Shown here one piece after another: positions 20,105-59,980 of a stretch of 64,000 nt of DNA (positions are counted from its first letter, which is position 1; each line of letters begins with the position of its first letter). The stretch comes from a virus (taxonomy: Duplodnaviria; Heunggongvirae; Uroviricota; Caudoviricetes), in the IMG/VR virus record IMGVR_UViG_3300034157_000063; one strand, given 5' to 3'. The notes beneath the pieces were generated by a model. It ran no database searches, was not told where the DNA came from, and saw only the letters and a list, made by a program, of their open reading frames with translations. The position numbers were made by a program, and so were the translations under genes.

Positions 20105-20122
20105 AAATATATAAAAACCATG

Positions 20123-20151
20123 TTGACATGGTTTTAAATCCAAGGTATTAT
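20123..20151 (+). promoter_or_regulatory. sigma70 promoter of tRNA-Met
   Basis: TTGACA-17-TATTAT; the -35 box sits inside the inverted repeat AAAACCATG-TTGA-CATGGTTTT. Confidence 0.7.
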
Positions 20152-20204
20152 ATAAAAACGAAATAAAGAACAATTCTTAAATGAATATTTTTATTTTACT
20201 TAGT

Positions 20205-20279
20205 CGCAGGGTGGAGAAGTGGTATCTCGTTAGGCTCATAACCTGAAGATCGTGGGTTCAATTCCCGCCCCTGCAACCA
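20205..20279 (+). tRNA. tRNA-Met(CAT), initiator-like
   Basis: Full cloverleaf, CAT anticodon, C1:A72 mismatch, A11:U24 pair, encoded CCA. Confidence 0.92.
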
Positions 20280-20357
20280 GATTTAGTTTGAAAAAAATAG
20301 GTGATACGCTACCGTAAATGCGAACTTGAAATATAATTAGCCGTTTAGGCAAGATTT

Positions 20358-20380
20358 AAAACCACTTAGGTGGTTTTTTT
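20358..20380 (+). terminator. Intrinsic terminator
   Basis: AAAACCAC-TTAG-GTGGTTTTTTT. Confidence 0.8.
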
Positions 20381-20464
20381 GCTTCAGTACTTTTATTTTT
20401 TTGACATGTTTAAATTTAAATCATATCATAAATATAATTTAAATGACATATTAAGAGGGTAATC

Positions 20465-21058
20465 ATGTTTAAAACTATTTCTATTGCTTTATCACTATTA
20501 ACAGTTGGGATTGCATCGGCTGACAGCAATTTCAAAGCCGGTCAATATGAGTTTGTTAAAATGGCTGTAACGCCTGACAATCGAGTAGAAGGCTATTATC
20601 ATGAAGTCATGGGTGAAGGTGTTACCAGAACGTGTACGTTCTTTTTCGAAGGGGCTATTGTTCCTGATGGTTCTACTTATGTAAAAACATGGTCAGGCAC
20701 CAGTAAGATTGATGGTGTTGTTGATAATCAACTTGATTCACTTTTTATGGAATTAGCTGATGACCATCCGGGTTGTTCAAGTGTTGGTGCAAGTCAAGCT
20801 AAATATGGTTTGAATTTCTCATTACTTGAAAAGAAACCTTGGATCGGATTAGGTGTTATCACAGAAGCTAAGGTTTATCTAAACAGTGCTCCTATTGCTG
20901 GCACAGAAGGTAAAGTCTATATTGTAGAAGATGACGTATTTAGTATTATTGAAGTTAAAGATGACTATACATCAATTGAATACATTAATGATGATAACAA
21001 GTCTTTTACAGGTTGGATAAAAACATCTAGTTATTCTGGCATTAAAGATGCAAAATGA
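20465..21058 (+). CDS. Secreted protein with probable C-terminal SH3b-like domain
   Basis: Signal peptide ending ASA/D, one Cys pair, C-terminal ...Y...GWIK pattern. Confidence 0.65.
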   Translation: MFKTISIALSLLTVGIASADSNFKAGQYEFVKMAVTPDNRVEGYYHEVMGEGVTRTCTFFFEGAIVPDGSTYVKTWSGTSKIDGVVDNQLDSLFMELADDHPGCSSVGASQAKYGLNFSLLEKKPWIGLGVITEAKVYLNSAPIAGTEGKVYIVEDDVFSIIEVKDDYTSIEYINDDNKSFTGWIKTSSYSGIKDAK

Positions 21059-23226: not shown

Positions 23227-23378
23227 ATTTTTCAACATCCTCTACACGGCTCTATTTACTGGCATTCTCAATTACCAGTAAATAGAAAGTGTTACTAAAT
23301 GCACATTTTAAAATAATTTTTGTTGACTTCTATATAAGTTGTGGCATTATGTCATCAAATTTTAGAGGATGTCTTAAT

Positions 23379-25031
23379 ATGAAACTGTTTAATGATTTAG
23401 GTATAAAATGGAAGATACAAATTGCATTTCTTGCTGTATCTTTGATTATCATGTCTGCTTTTAGCTATTTTTATTATTCATATGCCGTAAAAAGTGAATT
23501 AGGCAATATGGATAATAAACTAGAGTTTGCTACTAAATATTTTAATGAAATCATTAACGAACCATTTATTGATAGTGTTATTAATCATAATGATATAGAT
23601 GTTAATTTATCTCATCAAAAATCTATGCAATTAACGAAATTTGTTACTGAGTTAGAAATACCTTACTTTTATGCTATATTTATTGATAAAGATGGCAAAT
23701 CAAAATACATCACCTCTAATTTAACGGACAAAGAAATTAGTGATGAGTCTATACATTATACGGCAACACCTTATGATGAACCTGAAACAGAAAAGTTTAT
23801 CAGACAAGTATTAAACACAAACATTCAAGCCACCGAAGAATATAGTTCAAAAACAGGTGATTTTAGAACATTATATGTTCCTAAAAAAACATTGGCTGGT
23901 AACCGATATGTGGTAGCTGCAGATATTAATCTATCTGATGTTCAAGGTGTTAAAGAACGTATTATTATGACCGTAGCTATCATTTTTGCTATTGCTATTA
24001 TATTCATTAACATTGTAGCTTATTTCCTTGGTAGATTAATTACCGCTCCTATCCTTGAAATGGTAAAAGTTTTTGAACAGCTAGGTTCTGGTAATGCTGA
24101 TTTAACTTATAAGATACCTGTGAAATTTAATGATGAAAGCGGTCAAATGGCTCGTAATTTCAATTTGTTCATCGCAACACTTAGAGATATGGTTGATTCG
24201 ATTAAAACGAACACGCATGAGCTTACAACAGGTCTTGTTGACATTAATGGATTGATGAATAAATTGTTGGTAGATTCCCAAGGACAATCAGACAGAGCCA
24301 CGGCTTCTGCAGCAACAATAGAAGAGTTAACTACAAGTATGGGTAGTATTTCATTCAGCACTGACACTACGACTAAATCCGTAGAGAACGTAAATGAATT
24401 GACAAGTGAAAGTTCAAAGTCAGTTAAGTTGTTGAGTTCAGAAGTAGCAGACATCACTACATCAGCTCAGGATCTTTCAGGATTGATCCATAATTTGGAA
24501 GTTAAATCCCTTGATATTTCAAAAATTGTTACTGTTATTCATGGCATTGCTGATCAAACAAACTTATTGGCTCTCAATGCTTCAATTGAAGCTGCACGAG
24601 CAGGTGAACATGGAAGAGGTTTTGCGGTAGTGGCAGAAGAAGTTCGTAACTTGGCTGGTAAAACAGCAGAAGCTACGTTAAATATATCTAAAACTATTAA
24701 AGATATTAGCAATCAGATTGTGAGTGCTACAAAGAAAATGGACGAAACTAACGACAAAGTTGAAAATGGCGTTAAGCTTGCTGGTAATGTGTTAGTTCAG
24801 ATCAGTTCAATTCAAACGGATATGAAGGCAGTCTTTGATAATGTTCAAGTGATCAACTTAGCGACCAAAGAACAGTCTATTGCTACCCAAGACATGGCTC
24901 GATCTGCAGAGGAAGGCAGTAATAGTTCTATTCGTAGTCAAAAAATTGTTGAGCAAACAGAAGAAACAGTTTCAAAACTTCAAGATAAAGCTAACAAGCT
25001 TAATGAATTGGTATCTCAGTTTAATACTTGA
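23379..25031 (+). CDS. Methyl-accepting chemotaxis protein
   Basis: Two TM segments flanking a periplasmic sensor, HAMP domain, signalling-tip motif [37 protein letters not shown]; start revised to MKLFND after GAGGA. Confidence 0.95.
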
Positions 25032-25746: not shown

Positions 25747-26036
25747 TCATGTATCTCCTAGGTTGAATTTTTAATCCGTATCTGTTAATATACACTATAT
25801 TTTTTAAAATAAAGAGGTTTATTGAAAATGAAATAAGAAGTATGCTCGCTAGAATGATTAAAAAAAACAGCATCAACATCTTTTTCATGTATTCATGTTG
25901 AATGACAAAAAACCGTTAACTAAGAAGAAAGCTATTGATTTAAAAGATAAAATAAAAGAATAAAATAGAAAAAAGTGCTTGACTTCAATGAGTGATTACT
26001 GTAGTATTATCAATATTGAAGCAACAAATACTTTAT

Positions 26037-26112
<76 letters not shown>

Positions 26113-26124
26113 GATTAAGATTTA

Positions 26125-26254
26125 TGCTTGTAATAGGCATGTTGATGAAAGAATAATCGTTGCGATATACTAGTCAATCGCAGCTAAGGCTTCCGGGGCT
26201 GAAAGAGTTATTCCAGAGTCAATCTTCGGTTCAATTCCGAATACAAGCAGACCA
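26125..26254 (+). ncRNA. tRNA-like structured RNA (acceptor stem and T-arm, expanded core)
   Basis: TGCTTGTA/TACAAGCA stem, TTCGG-TTCAATT-CCGAA T-arm, terminal ACCA; no canonical D or anticodon arm. Confidence 0.55.
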
Positions 26255-26501
26255 TTTGGTTGGGCAAAGATAGCAGTAATCTACCCCAGCGACAGGGCTA
26301 ATACCCTTTACTGTAAAGCCCTTAGATGGGCACGAAAGATATGTGGTTCGTGTTGCAAGACCGTTCCGCACCAGATTAAATAAACACTCAGCAAAGAAAT
26401 TATGCAAGGCTCATGAAGCCTACTCCCGACGAGAGCACAGGATCTGCAAAGACTGCAAAAGCGAGTATAAGCAAACTGGAAGTGTGCATTTAATCATTAT
26501 T

Positions 26502-26575
26502 GCGGAATTGGCATAGTGGCTGTGCTCCAGCCTTCCAAGCTGGCTACACGAGTTCGATCCTCGTATTCCGCTCCA
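26502..26575 (+). tRNA. tRNA-Gly(TCC)
   Basis: GCGGAAT/ATTCCGC acceptor, CCAGC-CTTCCAA-GCTGG anticodon arm, U73, CCA; a terminator follows. Confidence 0.93.
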
Positions 26576-26647
26576 AATTTACAACACCTTCGGGTGTTTT
26601 TTTATTTGTTGTTTACAGTGATTTCTAATTATAAAAGAGGACATTCT

Positions 26648-27049
26648 ATGAAACAGATTGTTATTGAGGTTTTAAAAAAAGCGATTAGCCGTTCAGCAAT
26701 TAAGGATGGTAAAAAGACGATTAAAACAGAAAATGAATTGTTGTCTCTCAATACTAAATCTCTTATGAAATTATACAATAACGTTATGAAGGAATATAAT
26801 TTTAATATTGCTGACATATGTGAACAACATGGGAAATCATTAACTGACGATAGTTTTCGTGAGTATATGATTGATAAGTTGTATGATACTTACGAAAAGA
26901 CAGATATTTTGTACGACCCAGAGATTGAAGATGAAATGTATATGGCGGATTATGTCTTAGAGTATCCTGATGGTCAGATTGCTCATATTTATAACCATAA
27001 TATGTTTGATCATAATTTCATTAACTTTAAATCCGGTATGAATGATTAA
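26648..27049 (+). CDS. Hypothetical protein
   Basis: Start revised to MKQIV after AGAGGA; the track start lies inside tRNA-Gly. Confidence 0.7.
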   Translation: MKQIVIEVLKKAISRSAIKDGKKTIKTENELLSLNTKSLMKLYNNVMKEYNFNIADICEQHGKSLTDDSFREYMIDKLYDTYEKTDILYDPEIEDEMYMADYVLEYPDGQIAHIYNHNMFDHNFINFKSGMND

Positions 27050-27065
27050 TAACTAAGGGGGTAAA

Positions 27066-27569
27066 ATGGCAGAACTTATTAAAAACCTTAAAATTGATAA
27101 TGTGATTGGCCTATTGAAAAAGCCTGATATTTCTATTGCTTTCGGTAATGTTTCAGGTGAAAATAGCTTAGACATTACTACAGTTGAACAGCTTGAAAAA
27201 TTTCTTGAAGAAAGTTATGATCATGATGCTGAACTTGCATTAGTTGATAAGTCGTTGACTGAACGAGTTTTAACAATATTGACGAATCAAGAATATGTTG
27301 AATCTCTTGATGAATGTGGTGACAATGCGTTTGTGGTTGTTTATCACTTAGGTGATAAAGACTTGATTATCTGGATGGAAACATCAGGCTTTATGACAGG
27401 TTGTGATTTAAAAAGTGAACATGATGTTCTTGATGATTTTGTTGAGGTTCCGCATTTTTACCCAACAAAAGATCTTATAAACGACAAAGAATCCAATTTC
27501 TATCATTATGTGGGTAAGTATCCTAAAATATTGGCCGCGTTGAAAGAAATTTCTATTGAAGAAGAATAA
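27066..27569 (+). CDS. Hypothetical acidic protein (paralogue of 27582)
   Basis: Shared PD...FG.VS, VDK..TE, VYH...KDL.I..ET motifs. Confidence 0.8.
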   Translation: MAELIKNLKIDNVIGLLKKPDISIAFGNVSGENSLDITTVEQLEKFLEESYDHDAELALVDKSLTERVLTILTNQEYVESLDECGDNAFVVVYHLGDKDLIIWMETSGFMTGCDLKSEHDVLDDFVEVPHFYPTKDLINDKESNFYHYVGKYPKILAALKEISIEEE

Positions 27570-27581
27570 AGGAAAATAAAT

Positions 27582-28088
27582 ATGTTTCATGAAATTCAAA
27601 ATCCAAAACTAGACAGCTTAGTTCATTGTTTTAAAGTGCCTGATCTGGCAATGGTGTTTGGTGATGTATCCGATGATAACGTAAATGATGTATTCAATCT
27701 TTTTGACTTGGAAGATCTATTTTCAAGACCACAAGATCATGGTGCATTCATTTTCTATGTTGATAAAGACAACACAGAAGACATCTTTAACGAATTGGTT
27801 GATCAAGATTTTATTGAGTCGGTAGCAGAAGCTGGGGAAAATGGTCTGGTGGCTGTCTATCATGGTGAAACAAAGGATTTGGTCATTCTGTTAGAAACTA
27901 ATACTGGCGTTACATCACAGGCGTATTTATCTCAGCATAATGGTTTTGGTCACACATTTCATTATATTGAAGAATTCTTCGTCACTTTAGAAATGTTTAA
28001 TGGTCAAGACAATAGTTTTCTAGAAAGATTGGATGGTAATCAAGAATTGTTTGAACTCTTTCGTAAACTCGATGTCTATAATGACTAG
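27582..28088 (+). CDS. Hypothetical acidic protein (paralogue of 27066)
   Basis: Same motifs as 27066, in tandem. Confidence 0.8.
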   Translation: MFHEIQNPKLDSLVHCFKVPDLAMVFGDVSDDNVNDVFNLFDLEDLFSRPQDHGAFIFYVDKDNTEDIFNELVDQDFIESVAEAGENGLVAVYHGETKDLVILLETNTGVTSQAYLSQHNGFGHTFHYIEEFFVTLEMFNGQDNSFLERLDGNQELFELFRKLDVYND

Positions 28089-30292: not shown

Positions 30293-30376
30293 AGAGAGCT
30301 TAGGCTCTTTTTTGTTGTTTAAATTTTGTGTTTGTAGTATAATACATCTTATTATATTGCTCATATGGAAATTATC

Positions 30377-31078
30377 ATGAACGAAAAAACTTTAACAGAC
30401 GATCTTGCTTTATTTAAAGTTCGTGCCACCAATATTATGGCTGATTTTTTTATAAAATGGCAATCATCATTTGTTTATGATAAGGTTTATTTTGATGAAG
30501 CACAAATTCAACCTACCAGTCTTAAAGAAAGAATTTACACACTTAGTGTTAAGGTGGTTGATGAAAATAGATTTAAAGAAACGAAAGTGGTGGTCACAGG
30601 TAATTTAGATGATGATGATGAGTTGTCTCATCGTTATACAACTACATTGACAGTCAATGGTGATAAGATTCATGGTTTTAAAAGAGTCGATTTTGATCCA
30701 TATTCATTGGGTTCTGATTTTAAAAAATTCTATGCAACATTTTTTAATTATAATGTGTTGGATAATCGTTACAATAGATTTTTTCTTACTTTTGATGAAC
30801 AAGCTAATATATCAAATATTCGCATTTTTTTTGACGCATCAAAAGATAACAATACTTTTACAATTGACCGATTAATTTATAATTATGAAGATATTATTAT
30901 TTTAAGCCGTTACAATCTTCTGAATTCTGGTTTCAGTAGTTATTGTAATTTTAAATTTCTTTGGTACTGCACGAATATTAGAAATGTTATTAACGAACAA
31001 AATTTGATAGATGCATATCAGGAATATATCAAAAATATGGATAGCTATCATATATTGCTTAAAATGGGAAAAATTTAA
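30377..31078 (+). CDS. Hypothetical protein, MxxI-tail family, tandem paralogue A1
   Basis: W..SF..DK.YFDE and FLW..T.I motifs; ends HILLKMGKI. Confidence 0.8.
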   Translation: MNEKTLTDDLALFKVRATNIMADFFIKWQSSFVYDKVYFDEAQIQPTSLKERIYTLSVKVVDENRFKETKVVVTGNLDDDDELSHRYTTTLTVNGDKIHGFKRVDFDPYSLGSDFKKFYATFFNYNVLDNRYNRFFLTFDEQANISNIRIFFDASKDNNTFTIDRLIYNYEDIIILSRYNLLNSGFSSYCNFKFLWYCTNIRNVINEQNLIDAYQEYIKNMDSYHILLKMGKI

Positions 31079-31182
31079 TAAGATAAGTAGATTACACTTC
31101 AAGAGCTTTGGCTCTTTTTTTATTGAACTTATTTTCATTTTGTAGTATAATACGGCTATTATATTGAGCTTGGAGAGTGACT

Positions 31183-31878
31183 ATGACTGAAGAAATAAGT
31201 GCGACTGAAGTGGAAGTATTCAAAAAGCGAGCATCTGAAATTTTGGATAATTTTTGTAAAGAATGGCAGCATTCATTCTATAATGACAAAATCTACTTTG
31301 ATGAATATCAACTTGATTTCCCAAGTGCAGGCGTGTATACATGGAAAGTTATTGCTGTTAATATATCAACGCTAAAAAAGATGGCTATTGTGGTGACAGG
31401 TAACTTAGGAAAGGCTGATTCCTTACAACATGTTTATACGATTTCAGTGGCAGTTGATGGTGCGAGAGTTCGTGATTTAAAAAAAGATGATTTTAACCCG
31501 CTTGAGCTTCGTGATAAGTTTCATACCTTTTATACATCTATCCTTAATTATAAAGAAGTTGATAAACATGCTTATGGTTTATATCTTGTCTTTGATGAAG
31601 ACGCTAAAATTTTAAGTGCCAACACGACATTTACTATTTATAAAAACGATGAAGCCTGTCGTGCAGACCATTTTGTCTACCATGTCAGTGATTTAGATGT
31701 TTTAATCGGTTACAACCTTGTTCATACAGGTATTATTAACTATCGTAATTTTACATTTCTATGGAATCACACCAATATTCGGATTGTAATGAATGAAGGT
31801 GTTTTTTTTAATGCTTACAAGCTATACACTGAGGATATTGAACGTTACCATTCATTACTTCAAATGGAACGAATTTAA
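31183..31878 (+). CDS. Hypothetical protein, MxxI-tail family, tandem paralogue A2
   Basis: Same motifs as A1; ends HSLLQMERI. Confidence 0.8.
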   Translation: MTEEISATEVEVFKKRASEILDNFCKEWQHSFYNDKIYFDEYQLDFPSAGVYTWKVIAVNISTLKKMAIVVTGNLGKADSLQHVYTISVAVDGARVRDLKKDDFNPLELRDKFHTFYTSILNYKEVDKHAYGLYLVFDEDAKILSANTTFTIYKNDEACRADHFVYHVSDLDVLIGYNLVHTGIINYRNFTFLWNHTNIRIVMNEGVFFNAYKLYTEDIERYHSLLQMERI

Positions 31879-31985
31879 TATTATGAATGATATTGCTATT
31901 TAAAAAGAGCTTCGGCTCTTTTTTTGTTGATTTTTATTGCTGTTTTGTAGTATAATAGTGCAATATATGCCTCTTGGAGATTGTG

Positions 31986-32684
31986 ATGAGTCAGGTTACT
32001 TTAACAACAGAAGAAACTTCTATTATCAAAGCAAATGCAGACAATGTGCTTGCTCGATTTTATAGTAAGTGGAAATTCGCCTTTTCTAACGATAAAATCT
32101 TCTTTGATGAAGCCACAACAGATTTGAACCCTGATTATCATCATGTTCTGAAAACAACAGGCGTTAATGTAAGTACTCTTAAGAAGTTTTCTATTATTGT
32201 TTCCGCAAACATTAGGTCTGGAATTTATACTGAACATTATTACAATATCTATATGAGTGTTGATGCTGACAGTATCAACAACTTTAAAACAAAAGACATT
32301 GACCCAGAAAAACTCAGAAATGACTTTCAAGCATTTTATCGAAAAGTTATTGGAGATGAATTAAATGAAAATGAAGCGTCTAAATTAATATTTTCTTTTG
32401 ATCATAATGCTGTTTTGTTAAGTATTAAGATGACATTTACTCATTACGAAAATCAGGTAGGTCGGCGGGTTGATCAGTGTCTTTATAGAATTGATGATAT
32501 TGATAATTTACGCAAACGTAATATGGTTCGTTCTGGCGTTGTTAATTTTTGTAATTTTACATTCCTTTGGGAACATACATTAATTGAAGACATTCTGAAC
32601 ACAACTGATTTTTATGAGGCTTATAAAATCTATATTTCAGATATTGAACGTTATCACGATTTAATTCAAATGGAGCGTATTTAA
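31986..32684 (+). CDS. Hypothetical protein, MxxI-tail family, tandem paralogue A3
   Basis: Same motifs as A1; ends HDLIQMERI. Confidence 0.8.
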   Translation: MSQVTLTTEETSIIKANADNVLARFYSKWKFAFSNDKIFFDEATTDLNPDYHHVLKTTGVNVSTLKKFSIIVSANIRSGIYTEHYYNIYMSVDADSINNFKTKDIDPEKLRNDFQAFYRKVIGDELNENEASKLIFSFDHNAVLLSIKMTFTHYENQVGRRVDQCLYRIDDIDNLRKRNMVRSGVVNFCNFTFLWEHTLIEDILNTTDFYEAYKIYISDIERYHDLIQMERI

Positions 32685-32685
32685 T

Positions 32686-33387
32686 ATGACGGACATTAAT
32701 AAAACACTTATTGTTAATGATGAAGATATCATAGAGATGTCTTTTGATGTGTTGAGAGGTATATATGCGAAATGGAAAAATGTTTTTAATCAGTCAATTG
32801 TAAATGTTAATGACTTTAATAGTGTTATCGAAGATGATCGAGTTCAAATTTTTTTTGCTGATGCACAGCCAATAGCTATCAATGTTTCAGCCACTAAAAC
32901 AAGTCTTTTTTATGAAGACCTCAATTATGAAATACTGGCTTGGGTTCGTGAACCATTGGTTAAATTATTTGATACTGATGCACTTAGTATTTATGATCTT
33001 CGTGAAAGATTTTATTTAATGGCTCAAGAGCTGGGTGGTTTTGAATGTGAAAACAAAACACGAGCTAGCAGTGAGTTTTCATTTGATAAGTTTGGTAATT
33101 TAACGAAAGTTAGAGTGATATTTCAAAACCATAAAGATCCTACACTGAGTGATGAGAATTATCAACACCTTTCTGACCATTATATTTATGACATTGATGA
33201 TATAGTTTTTTTGAAAGAAAATGGATTAAATGAACTTTATCAGCCATATTTACGAGACTTCTATTTTTTGTGGGAGCATACACATATTGAAGACATTTTA
33301 ATTGCTGCCGATTTTTTGGCGTCATTTAAGTTGTATGCGGAAGACATTACACGTTATAATTCTTTGATTGCAATGACAAAAATATAA
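32686..33387 (+). CDS. Hypothetical protein, MxxI-tail family, tandem paralogue A4
   Basis: FLWEHT.IEDIL motif; ends NSLIAMTKI. Confidence 0.8.
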   Translation: MTDINKTLIVNDEDIIEMSFDVLRGIYAKWKNVFNQSIVNVNDFNSVIEDDRVQIFFADAQPIAINVSATKTSLFYEDLNYEILAWVREPLVKLFDTDALSIYDLRERFYLMAQELGGFECENKTRASSEFSFDKFGNLTKVRVIFQNHKDPTLSDENYQHLSDHYIYDIDDIVFLKENGLNELYQPYLRDFYFLWEHTHIEDILIAADFLASFKLYAEDITRYNSLIAMTKI

Positions 33388-33471
33388 ACTAAATGAGCAG
33401 TCCGTCAAAAACAAGTTGATTTTTATGTTATATGTGTATATAATTTGGGAAATTTATATTAAAGGTGAACT

Positions 33472-34233
33472 ATGATTTTAATTGACAAATATGGTGTCCT
33501 ATATGCACAAGATGAACACACAGGAGAAAAATATAGAATTGAAGACAAGGAAGTTTTAAGTTTTTTAAGAAATTGCATTTCTGGTATGACTCATAACTTT
33601 GGTGTAAGAGATTTTATTTCAATGTTTGAAGCCTATCCATCATTGTTGCTTATTGTTCCAGAATTTGAAGAAGTCATCACTCAGGCCAAGGTCTATGATA
33701 ATTTTACGGAGTCTGATGTTGATTGTTTGTGTATGCAGATTGGTTCAGACATCGTTGCTCGTGAAGATGAAGAAAATTCTATCATGTATTTCAACCTTAT
33801 CGGTGTCACTAAGCTGCAGGAAAACTTTTCACTCAATGTGCAAGCGTGCTCATTGTCACTAAAAAACGTTATCAACTCCAAAATTAGAATCATGGATAGC
33901 TTGGCTTTGACATTTGAGATGGGTGATAGCAATTCGTATAAAGGTCATATCCCCTTTAATGTTAAGAACTTTACTTTATTCGATTTCATTGCAGTCGTAG
34001 CGAATAGTCTTGTTCAAAATACTGAGAATGAAGGTGCCGAAGATAGCTTCAATGAAATCAAAGATAAGCTATTTAAAATGCGTAATATTATGTCTCAAAG
34101 ATTGGGCTTGCCAAACTTTGAAAGTGAGCGTAAAGTGGATGAAGAAGATGTAAAAGAAAATACCAATCACATATTGAAGCAAATCGAAGATATGATGAAT
34201 CCGGGGAAAGATAAAGACAAGGGAAAACAATAA
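33472..34233 (+). CDS. Hypothetical protein (first of three distant paralogues)
   Basis: M..I.K.G start and F.V..F..M...YP.L motif. Confidence 0.75.
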   Translation: MILIDKYGVLYAQDEHTGEKYRIEDKEVLSFLRNCISGMTHNFGVRDFISMFEAYPSLLLIVPEFEEVITQAKVYDNFTESDVDCLCMQIGSDIVAREDEENSIMYFNLIGVTKLQENFSLNVQACSLSLKNVINSKIRIMDSLALTFEMGDSNSYKGHIPFNVKNFTLFDFIAVVANSLVQNTENEGAEDSFNEIKDKLFKMRNIMSQRLGLPNFESERKVDEEDVKENTNHILKQIEDMMNPGKDKDKGKQ

Positions 34234-34243
34234 GGAGTTTTTT

Positions 34244-34921
34244 ATGTTAAGATTAAGCAAAGAAGGTCATATTTTTACAGTTTCTGAACTCGATGAAAAA
34301 TCGGTTTTACTTGAAAATGAAGATCTCTATAATAGTGTTTTTCAAAATTTTGAAATAGAAGAAGATTTTTCAGTAGTATCGTTCTTTGAAATGATTAAAC
34401 AATATCCATTATTTTTGAAATTTTTTCAACAAGGGGCTTCATACCTTGAAGAATATGAAGCGATTGATAAGTCTGTTGGTCAAGATTGTGATAAAATTGC
34501 CGTTATAACTCCACACTTTATGCTTAAAGATGGCGTCATTAGTCAATTTAACAAAATGGAAATTTATTTTTATAACAATGCTGAGTCATTCTGTGAAGAT
34601 GACCTCAGTTCAATGTATTTGAAAGATTATATCCATTACAGAATTGGTATCAATAGTTTAGCTTTTGTTGACAGTATTGATGAAAATGGTGTCAGTGATT
34701 CGCTTTACTTAGAATACTTCCCAGAAACTCAATTCCACTTGCTTAACTTTGTTCATTTTGTATTTGATACCATTTCACTGCATGGTTTTGTTGAAGAGCG
34801 AAACACTGTTATTGAAGAGATTGAACGTGATGAAAAAGAAATGCAAGAACACCTTGAAATAGAAGCCAACGATTTAACTGCAAAATTTCTTGAACAAATC
34901 AAGTCTGGCGGCAAGTCATGA
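34244..34921 (+). CDS. Hypothetical protein (second of three distant paralogues)
   Basis: EDFSVVSFFEMIKQYPLF. Confidence 0.75.
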   Translation: MLRLSKEGHIFTVSELDEKSVLLENEDLYNSVFQNFEIEEDFSVVSFFEMIKQYPLFLKFFQQGASYLEEYEAIDKSVGQDCDKIAVITPHFMLKDGVISQFNKMEIYFYNNAESFCEDDLSSMYLKDYIHYRIGINSLAFVDSIDENGVSDSLYLEYFPETQFHLLNFVHFVFDTISLHGFVEERNTVIEEIERDEKEMQEHLEIEANDLTAKFLEQIKSGGKS

Positions 34922-35583
34922 TTAAAATAACTAAAAATGGTTACATCCATTTCAAAGATAAATGTATTCCTAATAGTGTTGTGTTAACGATGTTGAGTGA
35001 GCGGTTGGTTCTTGATGAAGATTTTACACTTAATTCATTTTTCAAAATGTTAAACCTTTATCCAAACTTACTGAAACTTGAAACTTGTATGCCTCTTTAT
35101 TTAGATTTTTATAATAAAACTGCAGAGAAAGGGGCTATTGAAGAAATTGACACCACTAAAAAAATTCTTTTTAATAGTTACATTGTAGAAGATGAAGGTT
35201 TGTCGATGGATAAGAAGCATAACCTCACCGTAAAGTTTAAATCAGGTCATCTGTCCAATGTTAATAATCATCAATTATTCGAACTGATTAATCACCCGAT
35301 TAAATTAAACGAAAAAATTGTAAATTTTAGAATGGAAGACAACCCAGACTATGTTGAAAATAAAGCGTATCCTAAAAAAGTCTATGTAAGACAACCACAA
35401 GTTAATAAATCGAAATATCCCTGTGATTTCTTTTCTTTTATTATGTTCTTGTCTGGTTCTTTGTTTAGAGGTATGACACCAGAAAGTAGACGAAACACTG
35501 TTGAAATTACTGAAATGTCTTATACTATGTTAGCCTCAGAAGTGTTTAGAGAAATTAATAAAATAGTTTCAGGCACACCATAA
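34918..35583 (+). CDS. Hypothetical protein (third of three distant paralogues)
   Basis: EDFTLNSFFKMLNLYPNL; ATGA overlap with the previous gene. Confidence 0.75.
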   Translation: MIKITKNGYIHFKDKCIPNSVVLTMLSERLVLDEDFTLNSFFKMLNLYPNLLKLETCMPLYLDFYNKTAEKGAIEEIDTTKKILFNSYIVEDEGLSMDKKHNLTVKFKSGHLSNVNNHQLFELINHPIKLNEKIVNFRMEDNPDYVENKAYPKKVYVRQPQVNKSKYPCDFFSFIMFLSGSLFRGMTPESRRNTVEITEMSYTMLASEVFREINKIVSGTP

Positions 35584-47159: not shown

Positions 47160-47711
47160 ATGAAACCTATTTATGTCGCAAATTTCGTGGCTAATCCTGA
47201 TGCTGTGTTCAAAAGATTATTGAACGAGTTAGAATGGAAAAGATACGGAAACAAACCTAGAAAAGAATACTACTGCAACGATCACGATGTGCCTTATAGT
47301 TATGGCAATCCCGAGTTTGCGGATACCTATACTAGAAGTCCTTACAGTGATGACATCTTGGATATCAGATACAAGTTGGAAGAAGAATTGAAATCTATTT
47401 TTGATGTCTGCTTTTTAAATTTGTATGATGACTTTGCCGGTCACATTGGATGGCACGCTGATGACAGTCCAGAAATGGACCCTGACAGACCTATTGTCAC
47501 TGTTAGTTTGGGTGCTGAAAGAGAAATCTGGTTTAAAGAAAGACCTTCTGAAACCAGTTCTAAGGAAGTCACTAAGATTAAGTTAGGACATGGGAGTGCT
47601 TGTATCATGCCAGCCGGTATGCAAGCTACAGACTTACACAGAATCCCTAAGAATGACAGACCTTGTGGTGAAAGGGTTAGTTTGACTTACAGAGGTTATA
47701 AGTTCATATGA
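47160..47711 (+). CDS. AlkB-family 2OG-Fe(II) dioxygenase (ALKBH2/3-like)
   Basis: FLNLY...IGWHADD...VSLGAER...HRIPK...RVSLTYR (HxD...H, RxxxxxR). Confidence 0.92.
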   Translation: MKPIYVANFVANPDAVFKRLLNELEWKRYGNKPRKEYYCNDHDVPYSYGNPEFADTYTRSPYSDDILDIRYKLEEELKSIFDVCFLNLYDDFAGHIGWHADDSPEMDPDRPIVTVSLGAEREIWFKERPSETSSKEVTKIKLGHGSACIMPAGMQATDLHRIPKNDRPCGERVSLTYRGYKFI

Positions 47712-51938: not shown

Positions 51939-53855
51939 TTAACTTACACCGTAGTAACTTAGGAAGTTATCAATACTCACTTCTTGACCACGGAAGTTAT
52001 CATACAATTTCAATGGTTCAACACTGCTACCTTTTTCCAAGAATTCTTTCTTGAATTTGATAGCATTCTTTTCTTTGTCTTCAATGACATGCATAAACGC
52101 ATCGACTGAGTAAATATCAGCCCACATGTAACCATAATAACCAGCACTGTAACCACCCGCGAAGATGTGACCGAACGTATTTGGGAAAGAAGTGTCGTCA
52201 TCCACTTTTGATGGAAGAATTTCATTCGCAATAGATTTGTAGAAATCAGTAATATCACCTTCAAACGTGTTATAAAGGTTAATATCGAAGGTGGCAAGCA
52301 CCAACTGACGGGCATACATACTACCTACGTTGTAGTTCTTTGAAGCAATGATTGAATTCAGCATAACTTGTGGTATTTTCTCGCCTGTTTCAACATGCCC
52401 AGACACTGACATCAAAAACTCAGGATCGTAGGCGAATTGCTCAAGCATCTGACTTGGGATTTCAACCGCATCACGAGCCATGCCGCTGGTACCGGCCATA
52501 TCCGAATATTGAACCTTGGAACTGAAGTGGTGAACCGCATGACCCATTTCGTGTAAGAAGGTGACAATCTCATCAATATCCATACCGATATCTTTCTTGT
52601 TGATGTTGCAGCAAAGCGAAACAAGACCTACTTCGTCCAGCGTTACACCAGAAAGACAGGATACCCAAGCACCGCTACCTTTCAATTCTCTTTCATACAT
52701 GTCCACAATAAGGCGAGCTTTCAATACATTACCTTCGTACACTTTGAAACATTCACTGTCTTCATAAGGAAGGTCAAAAGCTTCTGTATCTTTGACAAAA
52801 GTAAAACCAAACAGTTTTTCAACCAGATTAAAAACACCTTCAAATACACGATCCTTATTGAAATATGGACGTTCCATGTTGAATTCATAGTTAAGCAATT
52901 TTTCTTTCTTGATGTTGCCATAGAAACCACGATTCCATTTTGGAATGGTATCCACACCAAATTCAGTTTTAGCAAACTGATTAAGGGCTTCGTATTCTAC
53001 TTTTGCCAACGGTTGCATTTTTTCTTTGATACGACCAAGGAAGTTGGTTACAACATCGTAAGTGGGAGCCATACGATCTTCTAACGCCATTTCAGTGTAA
53101 GATTTATAACCCATGATAGCGGCAATCTGTTGTTTCAAGCTCAAAATCTTTTTAGTCACTTCGGTGTTATCAAAGTTTGAACGTGGTGACCCCGGATATC
53201 CACTGGCTTCATAGATGATTTGTTTCAGTTCATCTGATGGCGATTTAACCATGATGTCACCCATCGCATTCTGGTTGAATTTCATTACCAGTTCGCCATC
53301 AATCTCTTTAAATGATTCAAGGTCTTTTTCTGATAGAGTCGCTTTGACTTCAGTTGTTAGGGTGTAGGACCACTCTTTTTTCGAGTCAATGAGGTTTTTG
53401 CTGAATAGCATTTGAGCAGTAGATAGCTCTTGGCTAATAGCATTCAGTTCATCCTGCTTGTCTTTTGGCAAATCAATACCAGACTTCTCGAACGCTTCGA
53501 TATAACGTTTTTTAAGACGTTCTTCTGTTTCATTTTCTGTTACCAATGATTTGATAAACTCGTAATGCACAGGGTCTTGGCTAAAAGGGTCAGAGTATTT
53601 TTCATATTCAGTGACCATAAATTCATACAGTTCACTGACTTCATCCGTTTTCTTGACATTTGAGAGGTAGTTGTAACGCAGGAAAATATCAGACATAGCT
53701 TTAGATTGGATATCGCTTTCTTTCATGTAATCATTGAACTTCATGCCTTTGTTATTTTTGATGAAGTCATAAATCCAAGTTTTATAACTTTCGAAGACAG
53801 CGAGAAATGTTTCTTTATCATTTGCTTTTGGTTGAAATAAGTCTTTATTGAACAT
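51939..53855 (-). CDS. prlC: M3-family oligopeptidase A-like metallopeptidase
   Basis: K.SGAW, TFLHEMGHAVH, DAVEIPSQMLE, FGHIFAGGYSAGYYGYMWA. Confidence 0.93.
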   Translation of the reverse strand: MFNKDLFQPKANDKETFLAVFESYKTWIYDFIKNNKGMKFNDYMKESDIQSKAMSDIFLRYNYLSNVKKTDEVSELYEFMVTEYEKYSDPFSQDPVHYEFIKSLVTENETEERLKKRYIEAFEKSGIDLPKDKQDELNAISQELSTAQMLFSKNLIDSKKEWSYTLTTEVKATLSEKDLESFKEIDGELVMKFNQNAMGDIMVKSPSDELKQIIYEASGYPGSPRSNFDNTEVTKKILSLKQQIAAIMGYKSYTEMALEDRMAPTYDVVTNFLGRIKEKMQPLAKVEYEALNQFAKTEFGVDTIPKWNRGFYGNIKKEKLLNYEFNMERPYFNKDRVFEGVFNLVEKLFGFTFVKDTEAFDLPYEDSECFKVYEGNVLKARLIVDMYERELKGSGAWVSCLSGVTLDEVGLVSLCCNINKKDIGMDIDEIVTFLHEMGHAVHHFSSKVQYSDMAGTSGMARDAVEIPSQMLEQFAYDPEFLMSVSGHVETGEKIPQVMLNSIIASKNYNVGSMYARQLVLATFDINLYNTFEGDITDFYKSIANEILPSKVDDDTSFPNTFGHIFAGGYSAGYYGYMWADIYSVDAFMHVIEDKEKNAIKFKKEFLEKGSSVEPLKLYDNFRGQEVSIDNFLSYYGVS

Positions 53856-59081: not shown

Positions 59082-59980
59082 ATGTCACAGCTAAACGCAA
59101 TCTAATTATCGAAACATACAAAGACCATTCCAGATTATATGAATTGGACTTTCATATAAATTCATCTGTCAAAAGTCCTGACGATACAACTCTGTTTACC
59201 ACATCTGGTATGCAACAATTTAAACCCTTATATTCTAATCTAGAATACACCAACACATTTACCAACATCCAGCAATGTCTAAGAATTAATGATCTAGACG
59301 AAATAGGCGATGGCACACACTTTTTAAAATTTGAAATGATAGGTTTATTTTCATTTAGACAATGGACACTTAAACAAGCTATTGATTTCATGTATTCCTT
59401 TGTTAACAAGCTGGGTATTATTCCAGACTATGTAACTATTCACCCTGATAAATATGAAGACTGGAAAGACCTTTATTCTGAATATGGCGTTGAAATACGT
59501 TTAGATCCTGAATGTGTCTGGTCAGATGGTAGTATTGGTGGATATTGCACAGAGTTTTACAAGAACGATGTTGAGATAGGGAATATTGTGAATACAATGG
59601 ATACTTGCATAGATGTGGGTTTTGGACTTGAAAGACTGCTTGAAGTGACTGGAAGCTTAAGACCGAAAAGTAAGCTTCAAATCCTTGAAGAAACTGCTTT
59701 ATTATTGATAGACGATGGTGTATTACTTGGTCACAATAAGAAAGAATACATTTTGAAAAAACTAATCACTGAATCTATTTTTCATGGTAGTCAAATAAGT
59801 AATGAATTTTTTGATCGAATTCGTTTCAATCAAGAAAAAGCTTATTCTACTTATATGAGGAAAAGAAACCATAAACGCTTTAAAGATAAAGATTCCATTT
59901 TCTGGATGGATACCTATGGTTTTAATATTAGTCGAATGGATGAATATGTATCAGTGTTTGGAAAAAAAGAAGACTCGTAA
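59082..59980 (+). CDS. Truncated alanyl-tRNA synthetase-like protein (aminoacylation core only); true start probably ATG 59082, joined by a -1 frameshift or indel
   Basis: DTTLFTTSGMQQFK, QCLRINDLDEIG..THF..FEMIGLFSF and IDVGFGLERL match AlaRS motifs. No editing or C-Ala domain. AGGAGG-ATG at 59071/59082 is out of frame with the body ORF (track: 59144..59980). Confidence 0.8.

Follow-up and report, generated by a model that had tools for sequence, protein, structure and literature searches.

The species 1 and species 2 RNAs of bacteriophage T4 have been known since the 1970s, and we know of no function for either. In jakobid mitochondria, transfer-messenger RNAs (tmRNAs) without a tag are present, and in engineered tRNA scaffolds, in the TMERs of murine gammaherpesvirus 68 (MHV68) and in mascRNA a tRNA frame serves as a handle for the processing and stability of a non-tRNA module. 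Here we describe a tRNA-shaped RNA, termed X, of 130 nt (26125-26254, plus strand) within a 64,000-nt stretch of viral DNA from the Caudoviricetes (IMG/VR record IMGVR_UViG_3300034157_000063, hereafter the window). Its limits are those of an earlier account drawn from the letters of the window (the original prediction), in which X was described as mimicking a tRNA in its acceptor stem and T-arm, a branched core standing in for the D and anticodon arms. Judged by sequence comparison, X is a conserved, structured RNA under selection that possesses the top half of a tRNA, has no decoding half and lies within a tRNA operon. X represents a new family within a class of RNA that is known but poorly understood, and the closest known RNA, the T4 species 1 RNA (rnaC), is an analogue with no detectable homology.

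The T4 rnaC is a stable RNA of 139 nt (NC_000866 70908-71046), close in size to X, and likewise lies in a phage tRNA cluster. In our own reading of its sequence, an acceptor-like stem of seven layers, two of them U-U mismatches, is stacked on a canonical T-arm (CCGGG-UUCGAAU-CCCGG, also present in the computed T4 fold), an AGG comes directly after the 5' acceptor strand, and the body is rebuilt from long helices. X and rnaC are of the same kind: at ~130-140 nt, each lies in a phage tRNA operon and combines acceptor stem and T-arm with a body that has been rebuilt. However, the body of rnaC is formed by two separate hairpins, whereas that of X is one arm ending in a three-way junction, and the host range and type of the carrying element also differ. 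Alignment of the two RNAs with MAFFT gave similarity at chance level, and R2, the covariance model of the X family, scored rnaC at 15 bits, level with ordinary long-arm tRNAs. Rfam holds no family for rnaC or for the species 2 RNA (rnaD), hence the missing Rfam match of X says nothing on its relation to rnaC.

Structure and conservation of X

Relatives of the locus were collected as JGI and Logan contigs matched by the exact sequence of a neighbouring protein, including a contig of 190 kb, and contigs covering the locus were 94.7% identical to the window over a 701-nt query. Homologues of the flanking 216-aa protein (51-75% identical), for which contigs were fetched, pointed to loci in synteny with the window, carried by contigs of 171 kb, 244 kb (L019), 520 kb (L023) and 1.84 Mb (L021). 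Eight distinct versions of the operon were obtained, with seven distinct close versions of X. Across the eight, the tRNA-Thr and tRNA-Gly genes are 100% identical and 27 of the 130 columns of X are variable; the 551-nt operon region is 87-97% identical, far above the identity of the flanking protein. X occurs in two main forms that are 17-25 of 130 positions apart, while the flanking tRNAs do not differ in any of the eight. A homologue of the downstream 497-aa protein, only 51% identical, led to a further locus, L036, with the order tRNA-Thr, 12-nt leader, X homologue (X'), 8-nt spacer and tRNA-Gly, and without the two structured RNAs, Y and Z, that follow X in the window. The tRNAs of L036 are 85-87% identical to those of the window. 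BLAST misses X' in L036, which is detected by R1, a covariance model of the close clade, at 46 bits (E ~1e-12), giving nine X sequences in total.

The minimum free energy (MFE) fold of X contains every stem listed in the original prediction, each of them found in place. The acceptor stem P1 comprises 8 bp (26125-26132, 5' strand UGCUUGUA, with 26242-26249) and ends in a discriminator-like base, A26249, followed by the 3' tail GACCA (26250-26254). P1 and the tail are invariant in the close clade, and four of the eight P1 pairs carry two-sided changes in L036. The T-arm UUCGG-UUCAAUU-CCGAA (26225-26241) is stacked straight onto the acceptor stem. No D stem is present; an 8-nt D-loop substitute, AUAGGCAU (26133-26140), takes its place, and within it the AGG at 26135-26137, invariant in 9/9 sequences, is presumed to be the equivalent of G18/G19 and to dock on the T loop. 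The long arm begins with P2 (5' strand GUUGAU, 26141-26146, with 26218-26223), which shows one-sided wobble changes and, in L036, two pairs with two-sided changes. It continues with the eight pairs of P3 (26150-26157 with 26207-26214; 26151-26157 with 26207-26213 in the MFE fold), six of which have two-sided changes across the family. From a three-way junction at the tip of this arm branch the P4 hairpin (26159-26184), with a covarying 8-bp stem and the 10-nt loop AUACUAGUCA (26167-26176), and the P5 hairpin GGCUUCCGGGGCU (26188-26200). The junction strand GAAAGA occupies 26201-26206, and in the MFE fold a single unpaired C separates the 3' strand of P2 from the T-arm. Set against the tRNA family (RF00005), X shares the stacking of the acceptor stem on a T stem of 5 bp and the 7-nt UUCRANY loop that closes the latter, and lacks both the D arm and the 5-bp anticodon stem with its 7-nt loop (U33, purine 37), its own hairpin loops being of 10 nt (16 nt in L036) and 3-7 nt.

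Comparative pairing bears out the structure put forward in the original prediction. Within the close clade (seven versions) RNAalifold gives the same fold, 96.1% of cells are paired, and two-sided changes occur at four pairs (27-89, 31-85, 39-56 and 41-54 in X numbering) with G-U intermediates present. With L036 included, 94.4% of cells are paired and 17 of the 40 pairs have two-sided changes, distributed over all six helices (acceptor 4, P2 2, P3 6, P4 3, P5 1 and T stem 1). In a shuffle control 0/500 matched the observed values, and sliding the partners by 1-3 columns gave 27-46% paired. The alignment of L036 was fitted to the model, which favours structure; its acceptor, T-arm and P3 pairings are evident by eye. 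In P5 of L036 one stem pair changes from C-G to A-U in the model alignment and, in our own reading of L036:136-150, the adjoining pair from G-U to U-A, while in the T stem one pair changes from U-A to A-U. Several of the G-U pairs would be C-A on the minus strand, which identifies the plus strand as the RNA. Coding potential was considered and rejected, because the substitutions are compensatory and Y contains indels of 1-2 nt.

In the top half of X, the T loop is found as UUCAAUU, UUCGAGU, UUCAAAU, UUCAAGU and UUCGAAU, its only variable bases being those numbered 57 in tRNA (A or G) and 59 (any base), which is the tRNA rule UUCRANU. Invariant are the U at -1, the pair G1-C72 and A26249, whether the latter is paired or unpaired. 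Acceptor pairs 2:71 and 3:70 change from C-G/U-A to G-U/G-C in L036, and in the 3' tail GAC is conserved and CCA is not, the tail of L036 reading GACAA. The 3' ACCA noted in the original prediction is therefore present in the window but is not a conserved encoded CCA end. With pairs 2:71 and 3:70 varying, no fixed synthetase identity set is visible in the acceptor. X is probably not aminoacylated. A reading in which X is instead an aminoacyl carrier would have it trimmed to A26249, extended by CCA addition and charged by a small synthetase-like enzyme of the element that lacks an anticodon domain, for a non-ribosomal or sensing use. It is consistent with the retained acceptor/T minihelix, G1-C72 and the A discriminator, and the window encodes a 278-aa alanyl-tRNA synthetase (AlaRS)-like protein (59144-59980) that matches the N-terminal catalytic part of AlaRS only. 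However, L036 encodes no CCA, the acceptor has no fixed identity pairs and no G3:U70, and the deep conservation of the distal tip would be left unexplained, so that a carrier role is considered unlikely.

At the tip of the arm, conserved motifs sit over rewritten stems of similar length: the P4 loop motif AUACUAGU is kept in L036 though its P4 stem sequence is unrelated, as are UUCCGGG of P5 and GAAA of the junction strand. Conservation of the P4 loop might reflect pairing with another RNA, either as a homodimer through the ACUAGU palindrome or through UACUAG with the anticodon loop of tRNA-Thr(UGU); in the second version ACU would be a Thr codon followed by a purine, like a T-box specifier. 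The hexamer is invariant in 9/9 sequences, and five of its six positions form Watson-Crick pairs with tRNA-Thr 32-37, leaving a U-U at the wobble position. Yet 8-15% of random or shuffled 10-mers contain a 6-nt palindrome, and 7-14% match the anticodon loop of a flanking tRNA at 5/6 positions by chance. Neither the loop nor the anticodon varies, which leaves covariation silent on their pairing, and no other target of the loop was found in the window. The palindrome and the complementarity to tRNA-Thr are not statistically remarkable and are treated as leads only, and pairing through the P4 loop is regarded as improbable.

Three further readings were dropped. A 6-nt pairing of the P4 loop with Z was dismissed, ~0.2 such matches being expected by chance on our own estimate. 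The loops as mimics of Thr, Gly or Arg anticodons were put aside as a lead only, since position 37 of P4 would be a pyrimidine and the registers are ambiguous. A hammerhead-like reading of UGAUGA...GAAA was rejected, since the junction strands are in the wrong cyclic order and there is no Rfam match.

Comparison with known RNA families

The likeness to the tRNA-like domain of tmRNA without a message, drawn in the original prediction, holds for the strand order, which is the same in both: the acceptor is followed by a D-loop substitute that is unpaired and contains GG, then by a long helix where the anticodon arm would be, and a very short connector leads on to the T-arm. X differs from tmRNA in lacking G3:U70, a tag frame, pseudoknots and a conserved CCA. 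The acceptor stem of X in the window has no G-U pair at all, as had been predicted for G3:U70, and that of X' in L036 has G2-U71 and no CCA, in place of the G3:U70 and encoded ACCA of tmRNA. Neither a tag frame with a resume codon nor pseudoknots are present in X, which is closed by its three-way junction.

The shared topology, corresponding to the tRNA-like domain and helix 2 of tmRNA, raises the question of a disguised decoding RNA, be it a tRNA that has an intron or has decayed, or a ribosome-rescuing tmRNA without a tag. Lax ARAGORN settings (70% score threshold, long introns) do offer two candidates on X, a tRNA-Ser interrupted by an intron of 46 nt and a permuted tmRNA, but the same run makes several plainly false calls on both strands, and by default ARAGORN finds only the three true tRNAs of the window and does not call X, introns allowed or not. 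In Rfam searches at the gathering thresholds and at E<=10, no tRNA, tRNA-Sec, tmRNA or other credible match was returned on X, and one weak antisense tRNA-like match was seen. The lack of a D stem, G3:U70, a tag frame and a conserved CCA also argues against a decoding RNA, and the supposed intron of an intron-containing tRNA carries the motifs that are the most strongly conserved, and is not a freely evolving insert. A decoding function in disguise is thus very unlikely, and X matches no known family in Rfam or default ARAGORN.

YrlA (RF02553), the partner of Ro/Rsr, is alike in being a non-decoding RNA with a tRNA-like module, and some jumbo phages carry Ro together with a tRNA-like partner (PMC7824862). 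The ends of YrlA form the Ro-binding stem and its tRNA-like part is internal, whereas the ends of X form the acceptor stem. The YrlA model reached 16 bits against a gathering threshold of 69, with the match mostly over tRNA-Thr, and no TROVE (Ro) protein was found among the 30 open reading frames (ORFs) of the window that were scanned. The tRNA scaffolds, TMERs and mascRNA differ from X in that they keep the D arm or are eukaryotic and processed by RNase Z, and they share no common descent with X.

In blastn searches of 50,697 phage records and 72,556 plasmids, X, Y+Z and the whole spacer had no match. No further match was found in IMG/VR scanned by exact pattern, protein and profile, and none in the GTDB genomes scanned; a metagenome scan gave the 520-kb contig L023 (Ga0308157_10000049) as its sole match. 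No published description of the X family was found in the literature searched, which does not itself prove that there is none.

Transcription unit

The unit runs on the plus strand in the order promoter-like site, tRNA-Thr(UGU), X, Y, Z, tRNA-Gly(UCC) and terminator-like hairpin. A consensus scan placed the promoter-like site TTGACT-17-TAGTAT at 25979-26007, 5' of tRNA-Thr, where it is kept in L003, L004 and L014, and the terminator-like hairpin, followed by a T run and kept in relatives, at 26583-26598. The first gene, tRNA-Thr(UGU), lies at 26037-26112 (ARAGORN; Rfam tRNA, 74.5 bits) and the last, tRNA-Gly(UCC), at 26502-26575 (ARAGORN and Rfam). Between X and tRNA-Gly are ~250 nt of non-coding sequence, with Y (26255-26373) and Z (26374-26495). 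Because the promoter-like site and the terminator hairpin enclose these RNAs, the stretch looks like one transcription unit, in which X would be co-transcribed with the tRNAs. No second copy of X was found in the window or in the relatives' loci examined.

Two other promoter candidates were rejected by eye, an internal TTGATG-18-TATACT and a minus-strand TTGACT-16-TATTCT, neither of which is kept in the aligned variants or in L036. Elsewhere in the window, tRNA-Met(CAU) (20205-20279) is flanked by a promoter-like site (20123) and a terminator (near 20358-20380) of its own (region 20105-20465), with ~80 nt unexplained between the tRNA and its terminator; its trailer after CCA, GAUUUAG, resembles the GAUUAA trailers of the X operon.

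From the CCA of tRNA-Thr to X extends a 12-nt leader, GAUUAAGAUUUA (26113-26124), which is nearly the same in L036 (GAUUAAGAUUUG), GAUUAAGAUUU being conserved in the leader. The 13-nt spacer of the original prediction is correct when counted to G26126 and shortens to 12 nt if X starts at U26125. This conserved leader, and the position of X always between tRNA-Thr and tRNA-Gly, including in L036, would suit a cis-acting processing spacer, which supplies RNase P and RNase E sites for maturation of the flanking tRNAs and is then degraded. Such a spacer needs no conserved distal loops, fixed arm length or covarying distal helices, however, and other phages pair tRNA-Thr with tRNA-Gly without any X-like element; it is a poor candidate to explain X. 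Pseudomonas phage PA5oct was examined as a carrier of X and rejected, its tRNA-Thr being 95-96% identical and no X being present.

Proposed role of X

We lean, with moderate confidence, towards X being a working, non-decoding, tRNA-shaped RNA that is excised by tRNA enzymes, uses its top half as a handle and its tip as a working surface, and acts as a decoy. A single promoter would drive X together with tRNA-Thr and tRNA-Gly, and host tRNA-processing enzymes would then excise X. RNase P measures a 12-bp acceptor/T ruler, prefers U before its cleavage site (-1) and G after it (+1), and recognizes the tRNA elbow. X resembles such a substrate in its 7-bp acceptor, its 5-bp T stem and its bases at -1 (U) and +1 (G), and is predicted to be cleaved 5' of G26126. 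At the 3' end, an endonuclease would cut first and exonucleases would then trim. The acceptor/T helix, with its T loop docked on the AGG linker, would form a tRNA elbow, which, judging by its conservation, should stabilize the RNA and allow it to be recognized by proteins that bind the body of tRNAs. Where a tRNA has its D and anticodon arms, X would have a rigid arm, conserved in length, that holds the AUACUAGU loop, the UUCCGGG hairpin and the GAAA junction at a fixed distance. From its conservation, this tip is probably a specific working surface. X might then be a competitor of real tRNAs for some tRNA-binding factor, a mimic open neither to decoding nor to cleavage in an anticodon loop. 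The decoy role is a guess suggested by the genomic setting, because the window encodes an AlkB-like oxygenase and the AlaRS catalytic-core fragment. Overall, the observations of the original prediction are confirmed and its interpretation is partly supported, the roles it suggested (a sponge for anticodon nucleases or a substrate of element-encoded enzymes) being conjectural.

Several points weigh against this proposal. The single-sequence fold of X has a z-score of -1.8, which is weak and, coming from one sequence, little proof, and that of the L036 homologue has a z-score of +0.25. The nine sequences represent few lineages, and the deep comparison depends on one model-aligned sequence, L036. 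The eighth acceptor pair, U26125-A26249, together with the absence of CCA after A26249, could shift or weaken RNase P cleavage. Finally, these results do not separate a decoy from an adaptor or a guide.

As a two-ended adaptor, X would be held by a factor at its top half while the ACU-A of its tip captured the anticodon of tRNA-Thr(UGU), or, after CCA addition, would act as the private acceptor of an anticodon-blind mini-synthetase. This arrangement is considered decidedly unlikely; if true, it would make X a natural orthogonal tRNA-like carrier or a sensor outside decoding. The significance of X is that strong selection maintains a separate RNA of tRNA shape, without an anticodon, in an unrelated lineage of giant phage-like elements, and does so in a genome that carries several tRNA and synthetase genes. 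Should its partner prove to be a host defence enzyme that attacks tRNA, or a repair or charging enzyme of the element, a role would be found for this class of phage RNA and X would be a natural example of the 'tRNA scaffold' of engineering. The X family offers experimental handles in its two conserved loops, its arm of fixed length and its tRNA elbow.

Neighbouring RNAs, genes and related elements

The 3' part of Y (26342-26370) forms a 12-layer hairpin capped by a GNRA tetraloop (GCAA, GUAA or GAAA) and followed by CCA, and on these grounds resembles a tRNA minihelix; in L019 CUA stands in place of the CCA. RNAalifold shows three pairs with two-sided changes in Y, and compensatory changes are seen in its nested hairpins (GUUGGG/CCCAGC to GUUAGG/CCUAGC, and AGAU/AUCU to AGGC/GCCU). 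Another partner for the 3' strand GUUCCGC of Y could be the 5' strand of tRNA-Gly. Z is closed by GAUUAAAU and AUUUAAUC, a stem with two pairs that show two-sided changes (RNAalifold), around a nearly invariant interior, and no Rfam match was found for it. Over window positions 26125-26501, compared with L003, L014, L019, L021, L026, L028 and L031, the groupings of the three RNAs disagree: X sets the window, L021 and L014 apart from the rest, Y joins L014 with L031, and Z unites L014, L028, L026 and L031. Because the three modules group the relatives differently, they seem to have been exchanged by recombination.

Just 3' of the operon are three small genes (26648-28088; 133/143, 167 and 168 aa) whose synteny is kept in relatives, the 167- and 168-aa proteins being very acidic paralogues. 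No informative Pfam or NCBIfam family was found for the neighbouring proteins (133/143, 167, 168, 497 and 216 aa). Further along the plus strand, seven tandem ORFs of ~220-250 aa (30365-35583) look like a paralogue array; ORF 30365-31078, the sole one of the seven that was scanned, has no Pfam match. Cell-like genes occur among the orphans of the window at 1-2700, 23289-25031, 47160-47711, 51939-53855 and 59144-59980, with listed products that are inverse-autotransporter/invasin-like, a methyl-accepting chemotaxis protein, an AlkB-like 2-oxoglutarate (2OG)-Fe(II) oxygenase, an M3 oligopeptidase and AlaRS-like.

Near the syntenic loci of L019, L021 and L023 most proteins are without a Pfam family, and in L021 (ENA ERZ27281805 k141_522346) a TnpB-like gene and a resolvase are inserted near the locus. 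The element that carries the locus may be a huge phage, a plasmid or an integrated element, or may reflect a misassembly.

In Acinetobacter phage vB_AbaM_ABPW7 (Phapecoctavirus; L041), an unannotated homologue of T4 species 2 RNA (rnaD) lies at L041:1375-1490, just 5' of tRNA-Thr. Its first ~45 nt are ~85% identical to T4 rnaD, and a compensatory change is present in the first hairpin. The tRNA cluster of this phage contains other unannotated gaps of 200-330 nt with tRNA-shaped sequences that ARAGORN does not call, for example around 800-892, 1110-1200 and 1298-1378.
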